DNA of 64,000 bases from Alphaproteobacteria bacterium (lineage in GTDB: Bacteria > Pseudomonadota > Alphaproteobacteria > Rhodobacterales > Rhodobacteraceae), in NCBI GenBank assembly GCA_030426685.1, contig JAUHYC010000007.1, forward strand, positions 19,221 through 83,220, read 5' to 3'. Numbering within the stretch: the first letter of the stretch is position 1; every line of letters begins with the position of its first letter. The notes under the pieces were generated by a model. That model made no database searches. It saw only the letters and a list, made by a program, of their open reading frames with translations, and had not been told where the DNA came from. Positions 21,146-62,055 of the stretch are shown in pieces. A program made the position numbers and the translations under genes.

Positions 21146-21703
21146 CTATCCTCCGGTGCGCCACATCAATGCGATATACGTGTCGCCATATTTGCGTGTG
21201 TCGTGCAGTTCGAACCCCTTGGGCGCCGACATCGGGGCGTTTTCCTCCCACACGATCAGCGCATCCTCGGCCAGCCATCCGCCCCGGAGTGCGGCGGCCA
21301 GAGCTGTTTGACCCAGAGCCTTGCCATAAGGCGGGTCGAGGAAGATCAGATCATAGGGCGCGCCTGTGTTATCACCCAGCCGGGTGGCATCGCGGCGGAT
21401 CAGAATGGTGCTGTCAGCGCTGCGTGTCAGGTCGATATTCTTGCGGATCAGACCCTGCGCCACACGCCCGTCATCGACAAAAGTGACATGCGCGGCACCG
21501 CGCGACAGCGCCTCGAGCCCCAGTGCACCGGTGCCCGCAAACAGGTCGAGCACGCGCAGGCCGTCAAGATCGATCTGGTGGTCGAGCACGTTGAACAGGC
21601 TTTCGCGCACCCGGTCCGTGGTGGGCCGCAGATGCGCGCCGGCATCGCCTTTACCAACTGAGGCCAGCGCCCGGCCTCGGAACTCTCCGGCGATGATCCT
21701 CAC
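21146..21703 (-). CDS. rsmD: 16S rRNA (G966-N2) methyltransferase
   Basis: MRIIAG, RPTTDRVRESLF, LDLFAGTGALG.EALSRGA, FLDPPY. Confidence 0.95.
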   Translation of the reverse strand: MRIIAGEFRGRALASVGKGDAGAHLRPTTDRVRESLFNVLDHQIDLDGLRVLDLFAGTGALGLEALSRGAAHVTFVDDGRVAQGLIRKNIDLTRSADSTILIRRDATRLGDNTGAPYDLIFLDPPYGKALGQTALAAALRGGWLAEDALIVWEENAPMSAPKGFELHDTRKYGDTYIALMWRTGG

Positions 21704-22911
21704 GTTTTGAGCAGCGGTTTCAGGTCCGCGTCCGGGTCAGCAACAACCGCGGGATCGGCGGTTTTTCCCATTTCGATCAGACGTTTGCCAACCATGTAGG
21801 CGCGCGGGTCGTTCATCGCGTCAACTGCGATCAACCGATCGCCCTTGTAGTACCAGTAAGAGACGGTCTGCCCTTCGCCCTGCCGGGTCACGACGCGGTC
21901 ATATCCGGTGTTCAGCCCCGCGATCTGCAGCTTGACATCGAACTGATCCGACCAGAACCACGGCGTTGCCACGTAGTCCTTGGCCGCGCCCAGCATGTTC
22001 TGCGCCACGACCTCGGCCTGATCGATGGCGTTGGGCACGCTTTCCAATCGAATACGCTTCCCCTGATGCGGAAACGAGGCGCAATCACCCGCGGCCCAGA
22101 TCGACGGCTCCGAGGTGCGGCCATGGGCATCGGTCTTGATGCCGTTGTCCAGTTCAAGTCCGGCCATCTCGGCCAGTAGCGTTGATGGGGCAATGCCGAC
22201 GCCGACAACGACGAAATCAACTTGCAGTTCGGTCCCGTCACTCAGCACCGCGCCTGTCACCTTGCCGTTTTCACCCTTGAGGTGATCCAGCCCGACACCT
22301 TCACGGATATCGGCGCCGTATGCGCTGTGCAGGGTGCGGAAATAATCGCTGGTCTCAGGCGCGGCGACGCGCTGCAGGATGCGGTCGGCCATCTCGACCA
22401 GAGTCACCTTGACCCCGCGCTTGGCACAGACCGCCGCAGCCTCAAGCCCGATATAACCGCCACCCACGATCAGCGCGCGCGCGCCTTCGGTGACCGAGGG
22501 GCTCATTTCGTCGATATGAGCCAGATCGCGCACCACATGGACGCCATCCAGATCGCCACCGATTGCGGCAGGCAAGCGGCGCGGATCCGATCCGGTGGTC
22601 AGCGCCAGCTGGTCATAGTGGATCACATCGCCACCCACCGTCACCGTTTTGGCCTGCGGATCGATACCGGTGACGCGCTGGCCGAGGCGCAGGGTGATGT
22701 TGTTCTCGACATAGAAGCTTTCGGGCCGCAGGAACAGGCGCTCGAGCTCCATCTCGCCCAGCAGATAGGCCTTGGACAAGGGTGGGCGCTGATAGGGCAG
22801 ATGCGGCTCGGCCCCGATCAGGGTGATGTCCCCGACAAACCCGTCCTTGCGCAGCCGCGCCACCAGGGACGCACCCGCCTGCCCTGCTCCGATCACGACA
22901 AAATGGCTCAT
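21700..22911 (-). CDS. FAD/NAD(P)-dependent ferredoxin reductase-like oxidoreductase
   Basis: GAGQAG, YQRPPLSK, GGGYIGLE, AAGDC, PWFWSDQ. Confidence 0.92.
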   Translation of the reverse strand: MSHFVVIGAGQAGASLVARLRKDGFVGDITLIGAEPHLPYQRPPLSKAYLLGEMELERLFLRPESFYVENNITLRLGQRVTGIDPQAKTVTVGGDVIHYDQLALTTGSDPRRLPAAIGGDLDGVHVVRDLAHIDEMSPSVTEGARALIVGGGYIGLEAAAVCAKRGVKVTLVEMADRILQRVAAPETSDYFRTLHSAYGADIREGVGLDHLKGENGKVTGAVLSDGTELQVDFVVVGVGIAPSTLLAEMAGLELDNGIKTDAHGRTSEPSIWAAGDCASFPHQGKRIRLESVPNAIDQAEVVAQNMLGAAKDYVATPWFWSDQFDVKLQIAGLNTGYDRVVTRQGEGQTVSYWYYKGDRLIAVDAMNDPRAYMVGKRLIEMGKTADPAVVADPDADLKPLLKT

Positions 22912-23010
22912 GTTTCCCTCGTCTCGACGAATTACCGTAGCTTCGTTCACCTGCCCACCTATATTGCGGTAGAGCCCGACTCTGCAAATCCAATCGACAG
23001 GAGCACAAAG

Positions 23011-60727: not shown

Positions 60728-61147
60728 TCATTCTTCGGACACCTTGCCGCGCAACACCTTGACGTCACCGCGCGCTTTTTTTGCCGCCAAACGCCGTTTT
60801 ACCGACCCATAGGTTGGTTTCGTTGCAATTCTCCGCTTGGGCTTAACCAAAGCGCGGGCGATCAGTTCCGCGAGTCGTGCGCGCGCGATCTCGCGGTTTC
60901 GGGCCTGGCTGCGGGTTTCTTCGCATTGAATGATGATCGCGCCATCCTTGGTCCAGCGCCGACCTGCCAGCCGTTTCAACCGGCTCTTGACCGGATCCGG
61001 CAGAGAGGGTGAGCGCGCGGCCTCGAACCGTAGCTCAACCGCGGTCGAGACCTTGTTCACATTCTGCCCACCGGGACCGGACGAGCGTACAAAGCTCTCG
61101 GTCAGTTCCCAATCCTGAAGGGCGATATCGTCGGTAATGCGCAACAT
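60728..61147 (-). CDS. arfB: alternative ribosome-rescue peptidyl-tRNA hydrolase ArfB
   Basis: FVRSSGPGGQNVNKVSTAVELRF (GGQ), RSQARNR, basic tail KPKRRIATKP. Confidence 0.95.
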   Translation of the reverse strand: MLRITDDIALQDWELTESFVRSSGPGGQNVNKVSTAVELRFEAARSPSLPDPVKSRLKRLAGRRWTKDGAIIIQCEETRSQARNREIARARLAELIARALVKPKRRIATKPTYGSVKRRLAAKKARGDVKVLRGKVSEE

Positions 61148-61177
61148 GGGGCAGAGCTTACAGGGCGCGAGGAGAAA

Positions 61178-61208
61178 CAAAAAGGGCCGCCCCGGCGGGA
61201 CGGCCCTT
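61178..61208 (-). terminator. intrinsic terminator directly upstream of arfB
   Basis: Minus strand AGGGCCGTCCC-GCC-GGGGCGGCCCT then TTTTGTTTC. Confidence 0.8.
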
Positions 61209-61278
61209 CGAAAGTTCAGGAGGTCGGGTCGGTTAGATCAATCGACCAGCCGGAGCGAACGCTCCGCCAAGGGCTGCC

Positions 61279-61335
61279 TTAACAGGCGATCCCCCCGGTT
61301 GTTCCGACACCTCTCTCCAATCTCTTTCTCGACAC
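61279..61335 (-). CDS. candidate 18-aa leader peptide MSRKRLERGVGTTGGIAC behind an extended Shine-Dalgarno
   Basis: AAAAGGAGGTGATCCA-GTG start; TAA at 61281-61279; below the ORF-track cutoff. Confidence 0.5.
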   Translation of the reverse strand: MSRKRLERGVGTTGGIAC

Positions 61336-61350
61336 TGGATCACCTCCTTT
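61335..61350. other. 16-nt exact match to the 16S rRNA 3' end (CTGGATCACCTCCTTT)
   Basis: Read directly; flanks are not rRNA-like. Confidence 0.85.
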
Positions 61351-61410
61351 TCTATCTGTTGCGGTTGAGACTGAGCGTGACACAAGTTGTGCCAATCTCA
61401 AAGCGTTTTT

Positions 61411-62055
61411 TTACACGGGCTGCGCGGTCAGCCGCGCCACGATCACTTTGAACGGGATCAGCGCGATCAGCGCCAGCGACAGTTTCACCAGCCAGTCCGC
61501 AAATGCCAGCGTCACCCATAGCGGCGCCATCGGGCCGGACAGCATGAAGGGCACAGGCTCCCACGCCCAGCTGATTGCGGCGTTGGCATCAGCACCGAAG
61601 ACGGTAACCGAGGCCGAGAAGGCGATGGTGAAGAACAGCGCGGTGTCCAGCGCCGATCCAACCAGCGTCGAGACAAGCGGTGCACGCCACCAGCGACCAC
61701 CGCGCAGCGAATTGAACACGGTGACGTCAGTGAGTTGCGCGATCAGGAAAGCGGTGCCCGAGGCTACGGCGATCCGCAGCGGCACGGCGGCATAGGTGAA
61801 GCCATCGCCCTGCAGCATGATCTGGCTGCCGATCAGCGAGCAGATGACGCCAGTGATGAAGCCGGCAAACACCACCTTGCGGGCAGTGGCCGCGCCATAA
61901 ACGCGGTTCATGATGTCGGTGACCAGGAAGGCCAGCGGATAGGTGAAAGCACCCCAGGTCAGCAGTCCGTCAAGGATCAGGAACTGGACCAGGATGTTTG
62001 AGGCCACAACAATGGCGGCCATGGCAAGGATGCCGGGAATAAAGCTGCGTTGCAT
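61411..62055 (-). CDS. yhhQ: queuosine-precursor transporter (VUT/YhhQ family)
   Basis: VVASNILVQ, TWGAFTYPLAFLVTD, RIAVAS..AF..AQ..D, VGSALDT..FF. Confidence 0.9.
   Translation of the reverse strand: MQRSFIPGILAMAAIVVASNILVQFLILDGLLTWGAFTYPLAFLVTDIMNRVYGAATARKVVFAGFITGVICSLIGSQIMLQGDGFTYAAVPLRIAVASGTAFLIAQLTDVTVFNSLRGGRWWRAPLVSTLVGSALDTALFFTIAFSASVTVFGADANAAISWAWEPVPFMLSGPMAPLWVTLAFADWLVKLSLALIALIPFKVIVARLTAQPV

Follow-up and report, generated by a model that had tools for sequence, protein, structure and literature searches.

Within a 64,000-nucleotide (nt) stretch of an alphaproteobacterial contig (JAUHYC010000007.1, Rhodobacteraceae; hereafter the window), the minus strand between yhhQ and arfB carries rreR, the Rhodobacter/Roseobacter member of a published family of small mRNAs and thus an orthologue of an already described gene. 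We consider it highly probable that this element is a small mRNA in its own right, ~190 nt in length and a member of the rre family of Alphaproteobacteria, and that it engages ribosomes by the mechanism proposed below. An earlier sequence-only reading of the locus had found no named family for it. Such a name exists: the rre ("ribosome-regulated expression") genes were described by Hahn et al. (2016, RNA Biol 14:1353; PMC5711450), and a sister class is held in Rfam as CC2171. With the gene already published, the main value of the result lies in correct annotation. The raw-sequence reading had independently rediscovered rreR, a gene missed in Rhodobacterales both by genome annotation pipelines and by Rfam. 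New here are the link to Rfam family RF01867, the predicted pairing of the Shine-Dalgarno (SD) sequence and start codon within a covariation-supported fold, the coding signatures of the open reading frame (ORF), and a map of the yhhQ-rreR-arfB gene order.

Identity, conservation and coding signatures of rreR

Genes of the rre family are defined by a region of 16-17 nt complementary to the 3' tail of 16S rRNA. In rreB of Bradyrhizobium japonicum, a 165-nt mRNA, 17 nt complementary to the 16S 3' end are combined with a GTG start and an ORF of 14 amino acids (aa), and in the Rhodobacter/Roseobacter homologue rreR the ORF has 18 codons and the final complementary base is part of the GTG (PMC5711450). 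Common to the family are a complement of 16-17 nt ending on the GTG's first base, a tiny ORF, a structured RNA of ~165-190 nt, and a terminator. All sequence features of rreR are present in the window. The extended SD AAAGGAGGTGATCCAG (61350-61335, minus strand) is complementary over 16 nt to the 16S 3' tail, and its final G is base 1 of the start codon; the plus strand accordingly reads CTGGATCACCTCCTTT, and the match to the 16S 3' end running into a GTG, first pointed out in the sequence-only reading, was verified over these 16 nt. The RreR-like ORF, (M)SRKRLERGVGTTGGIAC, spans 18 codons (61335-61279, minus strand) from a GTG at 61335-61333 to a TAA at 61281-61279. A terminator scan placed a strong Rho-independent terminator at 61172-61209 (minus strand), consisting of a 13-bp GC-rich hairpin (61209-61181) followed by a U-run; the hairpin lies ~70 nt downstream of the ORF and marks the 3' end of the ~190-nt rreR RNA. 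Complementarity in the window covers 16 bases where the published genes reach 17 (AAAAGG in place of GAAAGG), and nothing essential differs. The 16S 3' sequence used for these comparisons was taken from PMC5711450 and general knowledge, as the 16S gene of the source genome lies outside the window. The lineage also fits, as the best matches to both ArfB and YhhQ were from Ruegeria spp., at 88-95% identity and with equal locus structure; these closest loci encode an identical or near-identical RreR peptide.

The complementarity is not a chance feature of the window. Its 13-mer SD core occurs once, against 0.09 occurrences expected (allowing up to 1 mismatch), and the 16-nt run is the longest complement of the 16S tail in the window, followed by one of 14 nt and then by matches of ≤9 nt. 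Chance and an rRNA fragment were both ruled out as origins by conservation in >120 genomes, by the associated ORF and terminator, and by the lack of an rRNA operon in the 64-kb window. A 14-nt match to the 16S 3' complement, GAGGTGATCCAGCC, is located at 22279-22292 (plus strand), antisense within an ORF at 21700-22950 (minus strand) that encodes an oxidoreductase-like protein of 416 aa; the mRNA of this ORF contains GGCUGGAUCACCUC, a copy of the 16S tail encoding ..GLDHL... Twelve nt of this match are complementary to the rreR SD, and the match itself is probably due to chance.

The 19-mer AAGGAGGTGATCCAGTGTC was found in >120 species genomes, nearly all of them Alphaproteobacteria among the matches listed. 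The element is a small RNA directed at the ribosome, conserved, encoded on the minus strand, and containing an ORF as well as an SD of purposefully unusual length; to this extent the earlier interpretation is supported. The rre RNA is a deeply conserved mRNA pairing with essentially the whole single-stranded 16S tail. Three clade-specific types of ORF begin at the GTG: MSR..LERGVGT.. (18 aa) in Rhodobacterales, MSHC[HL].PRS..TW.. (21-25 aa; hereafter the MSHC class) in many Hyphomicrobiales, Caulobacterales, and Acetobacteraceae, and MS..KRCHLAGIAR (14 aa) in Bradyrhizobium-like genomes. When loci were selected independently of the SD, by the closing helix only (TCTCATTGTC...GACAATGGAAGG), 104 new loci were obtained in which GAAAGGAGGTG was ≥97% invariant, the start codon was GTG in 100 cases and ATG in the other four, and the ATCCA extension was conserved at 88-92% per position. 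Full 16-17-nt pairing is common yet not obligatory, with the 5' half acting as the hard constraint, which is consistent with the truncation experiments on rreB.

Variants on either side of this norm were also seen. Divergent rreR alleles found via arfB include a G-TCCATG form with a 13-codon ORF in Aliiroseovarius (L133, L138) and, in loci L125, L151, L153, L145, and L155, a GCTCTAGTG extension, which occurs in three genera, and the altered Rhodobacterales extensions GACCAATG and GCCCTTTG; such alleles represent natural experiments on the required extent of 16S complementarity. At the other extreme, an 18-nt complementarity (AGAAAGGAGGTGATCCAG), spanning the whole predicted single-stranded 16S tail to the last base but one, is present in L026, L038, L070, L204, and 18 more loci. 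The 19-mer or stem pattern also matched seven records labelled Cytophagales, Planctomycetaceae, Streptomyces, Hydrogenophaga, Parcubacteria, Mycobacteriaceae, and Bordetella (L012, L013, L059, L094, L099, L223, L299). These are mostly contigs of metagenome-assembled genomes (MAGs) bearing an alphaproteobacterial-type rre, for which mis-binning is likely; the match in a complete Streptomyces genome (L059), which is followed by a 51-aa ORF unrelated to rre, probably represents a strong SD of independent origin.

The rreR ORF bears several coding signatures, namely a fixed length, three different stop codons at one site, and synonymous changes. The N-terminal MSR..LERGVGT of the window peptide is common to 39 of 42 unique Rhodobacterales homologues, and the ORF is exactly 18 codons long in 39/42. 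Starts in this set are GTG (39) or ATG (3), and the stop position of the 18-codon sequences is occupied by TAG (17), TGA (11), or TAA (11), and by a sense codon in 0/39. Synonymous variation is seen at Ser2 (all four TCN codons), Leu6 (TTG/CTG), Arg8 (AGA/CGA/AGG), and Gly11 (GGG/GGA), and the final six residues are free to vary. The unusual use of AGA three times in the first eight codons, to which the sequence-only reading had drawn attention, was confirmed: AGA stands at codons 3, 5, and 8, and represents only 1.5% of Arg codons in 19 long ORFs of the window with high GC at third codon positions (8/546, or ~1 per 1000 codons), at a GC content of 60%. Despite this rarity, AGA is retained at codon 3 in 34/39 sequences, and because this codon lies in an invariant hairpin loop, we infer that its retention probably reflects a constraint at the RNA level.

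Relationship to Rfam CC2171 and predicted fold

A permissive Rfam scan, a check that the sequence-only reading had suggested, matched the locus (61183-61360, minus strand) to RF01867, the Caulobacter small RNA (sRNA) CC2171. The match extends over the full model (1-159) at 36.2 bits (E = 9.7e-6), below the curated gathering threshold of 75 bits, and the window contains no Rfam match at gathering threshold. In architecture, the two agree: both have a 5' block (cAAcaA..GAAAGGAGGUGAUCCAGUGUC), a long-range closing helix beside a terminal GC-rich hairpin, and a similar length, and the AAGGAGGUGAUCCAGUGUC found in the 5' block of the window is held by the RF01867 consensus itself. They differ in the variable core and in the ORF, which begins MSR... 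in the window and MSHC... in CC2171, and Rfam handles RF01867 as a non-coding sRNA in which neither ORF nor SD is annotated. Across the wider set of loci, RF01867 scored 80-97 bits on those of the MSHC class (Methylobacterium, Brevundimonas, Caulobacteraceae, Bosea, Xanthobacteraceae), 71 bits in Azospirillum, ~52 bits in Devosia and a member of the Acetobacteraceae, and 42 and 28 bits on two Bradyrhizobium rreB loci. Since the classes thus form an unbroken series of scores, from 97 bits at the top to 28 at the bottom, the CC2171 sRNA and the rre genes constitute one extended family.

Joined in this way, the family gains a far broader mapped range, which takes in Caulobacterales, Hyphomicrobiales, Rhodobacterales, Acetobacterales, Azospirillum, and Dongiaceae, and Rfam-based annotation misses its rreB branch as well as rreR. 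The rre small-mRNA literature and the Rfam/Caulobacter CC2171 literature describe it without cross-reference. The rre paper mentions neither Rfam, CC2171, arfB, nor yhhQ (PMC5711450), and the CC2171 sRNA was first found in Caulobacter and its expression validated by Northern blot in Methylorubrum (bioRxiv 10.1101/2022.01.24.477521). No later functional study of rreB or rreR came up in a literature search, string searches with the sequence yielded nothing but papers on 16S primers, and this RNA goes unmentioned in the main text of a Caulobacter ribosome-profiling paper.

The RNA of the window locus is predicted to fold with a minimum free energy (MFE) of -90.7 kcal/mol (z = -4.5). The MFE fold comprises, in order, an AGGAGGU/ACCUCCU helix, a UCCAGU/AUUGGA helix, two inner helices, and the terminator. 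In the first, the SD core is predicted to pair with an internal anti-SD at 61218-61224 (minus strand), and in the second, a local hairpin, the SD extension plus the GU of the GUG would pair with ORF codons 5-6 (61316-61321, minus strand). Comparison of 36 homologues supports the overall architecture, with 95% of cells paired in the consensus structure against 34-57% in slid controls, and with 16 pairs showing double-sided changes, values matched by 0/500 shuffles. Seven covarying pairs fall in the terminator helix, and the consensus SD/start helix (alifold columns 26-34/41-49) is 98.6% paired across the 36 sequences. A CTCC or CCTC motif occurs ≤40 nt before the terminator in 34/35 homologues, compared to 7/35 in a control segment.

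Partition-function estimates of unpaired probability predict for each of the three classes a sequestered ribosome-binding site whose 5' flank is half-open. In the rreR class (35 homologues), the values are 0.03 for GGAGG, 0.15 for the start codon, and 0.49 for the 5 nt upstream of GGAGG; the corresponding values are 0.12, 0.00, and 0.38 in the rreB class, and 0.29, 0.44, and 0.53 in the MSHC class. In the latter, the partner of the SD extension is an in-ORF CUGGAUC..GCCUC segment that resembles the 16S tail, and compensatory cases were identified in L234 (GATCCAATG/TTGGATC), Azospirillum (GATCTCG/CGAGGTC), and Phenylobacterium (GACCCAG/CYGGGTC). A second, strongly conserved SD-like stretch, GGAGAGAGGUG, lies inside the rreR ORF at codons 6-9 (61306-61318, minus strand), and when the fold is constrained to mimic a ribosome on the true SD, the GGAG of this second stretch takes up the freed anti-SD.

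Proposed mechanism and competing explanations

Experiments on rreB provide the framework for a mechanism. Mapping placed the rreB transcript on the sense strand, and the full-length RNA sediments together with 30S subunits and is recovered in the ribosomal pellet, a localization that requires bases 5' of the canonical SD; rreB-egfp fusions are weakly translated, and a GUG-to-UAG mutation extends the half-life of the RNA from 10 to 37 min (PMC5711450). The authors proposed that single-stranded 5' bases seed pairing with 16S rRNA, which opens the conserved hairpin, and termed the function of rreB "elusive" (PMC5711450). By analogy, rreR would rest in a closed state, in which the SD core is predicted to pair with the internal anti-SD ACCUCCU, the SD extension and GUG with codons 5-6, and accessibility would be restricted to the A-rich bases immediately 5' of the SD. 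These A-rich bases could act as a toehold for the 16S 3' tail, a role that is itself only a proposal for rreB, and the tail would then displace the internal helices to form a 16-nt duplex holding the 30S subunit, in line with the 30S binding and the need for the 5' extension established for rreB. The over-long SD and the GUG would keep translation of the 18-codon ORF low, and ribosome engagement at the start codon would hasten decay of the RNA, both as shown for rreB. The output may be a peptide (the short RreR), an RNA signal linked to the ribosome, or the two together. When made synthetically, RreB and RreR are both unstructured (PMC5711450).

Several observations weigh against this interpretation. 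Every mechanistic step is extrapolated from the Bradyrhizobium rreB. Covariation offers no proof of the internal SD-extension pairing: the rreR helix that would sequester the SD extension and start codon is invariant, which is compatible with pairing but leaves it devoid of double-sided changes from which pairing could be proven, and compensation of the SD extension in the MSHC class is limited to some lineages, with own pairing better in 18 and worse in 12 of 31 variants in an energy test. Some Rhodobacterales have shortened or altered extensions (GCTCTAGTG, G-TCCATG). Finally, the peptide sequences of the rreR, rreB, and MSHC classes are unrelated, and much of the apparent amino-acid conservation could stem from constraints on RNA structure.

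As in the Rfam classification of CC2171, rreR could be a purely non-coding, trans-acting sRNA that pairs with target mRNAs via its CUAACCGG/CCUCC region, the ORF being incidental. The RF01867 match, the strong conserved structure, the highly conserved CTAACCGGCCCAnCTCC block, and a 3' part reminiscent of CCUCC-seed sRNAs are all compatible with such a role, which we nevertheless regard as unlikely: among the 39 18-codon sequences, the stop site is TAG, TGA, or TAA and never sense, starts are restricted to GTG or ATG, ORF length is fixed per class, and translation of rreB was demonstrated experimentally (PMC5711450). A dual function for rreR, both coding and base-pairing, may also apply. The resemblance of the 3' third of the RNA (61169-61240, minus strand; CCUCC region and terminator) to mmgR/suhB-type alphaproteobacterial sRNAs is weak (19 bits, E = 0.32), and is probably a generic similarity of the "CCUCC seed plus terminator" kind. 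A type I toxin of the hok-like kind was rejected on the basis of the peptide sequence, which is hydrophilic, Gly/Arg-rich, and devoid of a membrane helix.

The sequence-only reading had also raised ribosome trapping or 30S sequestration by a small RNA. Strong binding of 30S subunits, weak translation, and ribosome-dependent turnover, all established experimentally for rreB, come near to both ideas and partly support them, but a simple sponge that titrates free small subunits and thereby damps global translation initiation is very unlikely. Co-sedimentation with 30S and SD-extension-dependent localization in the ribosomal pellet would suit a sponge, yet ~20-fold overproduction of the ribosome-binding 17c-rreB left growth unaffected, as did overproduction of a better-translated version, and ribosomes vastly exceed rreB RNA in number according to the authors (PMC5711450). 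The largely sequestered ribosome-binding site predicted here is likewise ill-suited to high capacity. Least credible of all, to the point of being nearly negligible, is a functional plus strand yielding an anti-SD decoy RNA with a copy of the 16S 3' tail, which was another of the initial suggestions. While the plus strand does hold CUGGAUCACCUCCUUU, no promoter-like site or terminator was found on it, it is the minus strand alone on which a T-run follows the hairpin, that strand also has the ORF with its conserved start and stop codons and the conserved -35 box, and the rreB transcript is of the sense strand (PMC5711450).

The gene order around rreR invites a different hypothesis, a version of which was put forward in the sequence-only reading as a sensor controlling arfB: rreR would be a cis-acting leader or attenuator, in which ribosome occupancy of the small ORF with its exceptional SD sets read-through into arfB and tunes arfB to translational stress. 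The flanking genes were confirmed as a yhhQ-family (Vut_1) transporter gene (61411-62055, minus strand) and arfB, encoding a 139-aa RF-1 domain protein of ArfB type (60728-61147, minus strand). The order yhhQ-rreR-arfB on one strand was found in ~30/35 motif-selected Rhodobacterales loci and, with divergent copies included, in 26/37 arfB-anchored ones; in the latter set, rreR lies upstream of arfB within ~320 nt in 23 cases. In Ruegeria, the arfB ATG follows the terminator U-run at a distance of only ~25-35 nt, arfB has no SD, and ribosome trapping, mRNA cleavage, and rescue were raised as speculation by Hahn et al. (PMC5711450). We nonetheless judge an attenuator to be improbable. The absence of an SD is a property of arfB across Alphaproteobacteria (70 nt upstream, loci L121-L200), and a -10-like box (GCGATAg, GCTAAt, GCTAnAnt, or TAAGGT) is conserved 6-8 nt ahead of its ATG, both where rreR is present and where it is absent; in the window, arfB likewise has no SD, and a -10-like TAAGCT (61160-61155, minus strand) is found 7 nt before the ATG. 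Given the missing SD and the presence of a -10-like box conserved irrespective of rreR, arfB is probably a leaderless, independently transcribed gene, and these features suggest that arfB mRNA is generally leaderless in Alphaproteobacteria.

Neither the terminator nor the distribution of the linkage fits an attenuator any better. In MFE modelling, the 13-bp GC-rich terminator is retained when an initiation or stop-codon footprint is forced single-stranded, and no alternative antiterminator appears, so that no mutually exclusive pair of structures set by ribosome position was found. Nor is a dependence of arfB on a leader promoter, with a conserved linkage, supported: beyond the Rhodobacterales block, arfB has an rre nearby in a single locus (L159, an unclassified alphaproteobacterial MAG) and in none of the other orders sampled, the adjacency of arfB and rreR is lacking from Paracoccus, Gemmobacter, Marinibacterium, and Szabonella (the last of these has arfB on a different contig, while rreR is still beside yhhQ), and the rreB and CC2171-class copies adjoin other genes. 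Leader-peptide attenuators of the trpL type share with rreR a short ORF ahead of a terminator and a same-strand downstream gene, but here no alternative antiterminator turned up, regulatory codon logic is missing from the leader, a separate promoter signal precedes the downstream gene, and conservation of the linkage is confined to one lineage. In Escherichia coli, arfA is regulated by trans-translation within the arfA mRNA itself, through RNase III cleavage and a non-stop product. This is a conceptual precedent for a rescue factor governed by the state of the translation machinery, but nothing comparable was seen at the window locus, where arfB appears to be a separate unit. Given the -10 box of arfB, the lineage-limited linkage, and a terminator that survives modelled ribosome occupancy, we conclude that rreR is not an arfB attenuator, and that the adjacency is best read as a lineage-specific inherited gene order within the Roseobacter group. 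A functional tie between rreR and arfB may still exist, although comparative evidence for it is weak.

A broader role for rre RNAs can be imagined, although we hold it to be a long shot. They might be probes of the 16S 3' tail, reporting free, mature, and accessible anti-SD via ribosome-dependent decay. In the Roseobacter group, overlap between the rreR terminator and the promoter region of leaderless arfB would tie this read-out physically to ribosome rescue; initiation complexes trapped on rreR would then be ArfB substrates or modulators of arfB expression, and the scattered adjacencies of rre to yaiI and of yaiI to arfB described below for other lineages would be remnants of that functional tie.

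Predicted promoter region and other genomic neighbourhoods

The small mRNA rreR is predicted to have its own promoter. Ungapped comparison of 35 Rhodobacterales homologues revealed an A-tract and a TTGACA-like box conserved at the same distance from the SD, which in the window correspond to a -35-like TTGAGA (61396-61401, minus strand) and, ahead of it, an A-tract overlapping the stop codon of yhhQ (TAA, 61413-61411, minus strand); the transcription start is predicted from these elements. A sigma-54 or Caulobacter-type promoter upstream of rreR was rejected for misfitting spacing, leaving the TTGACA-like -35 box and A-tract as the only solid elements. The CACAA-G-TTGTG palindrome CACAACTTGTG (61381-61391, minus strand), which the initial reading had assigned to the probable promoter, does lie in the promoter spacer but is not conserved as a palindrome, only its CTGTG[GT]CA-type half recurring generally. 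Because the predicted promoter starts ≤10 nt from the yhhQ stop and the terminator scan found no terminator between yhhQ and rreR, yhhQ transcripts may also run to the rreR terminator, in which case rreR would form their 3' untranslated region.

Outside the rreR class, a census of 186 loci showed that the most common rre neighbour is a DUF188/YaiI gene, its domain assigned with Pfam, which follows rre directly and in the same orientation; Dongiaceae and several families of Hyphomicrobiales together account for at least 17 such loci (L028, L041, L042, L052, L101, L202, L204, L218, L219, L220, L242, L255, L275, L283, L288, L292, L304). In addition, yaiI abuts arfB in L190 (Caulobacteraceae) and L145 (Oceanomicrobium). 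A gene module of rre, YaiI (DUF188), and ArfB was considered and rejected, as it failed a YaiI-anchored control: in this unbiased sample, rre was directly upstream in 1/80 cases, which was the query's own locus, and arfB was within 1.5 kb in 0/80. The association is taken as lineage-restricted synteny. In Bosea (L031, L034, L209, L214, L216, L231, L238, L305), a tested 200-aa fragment of the gene downstream of rre contained no Pfam domain, and the gene resembles, by eye, the N-terminus of RNase R, an observation from a single genus that carries little weight.

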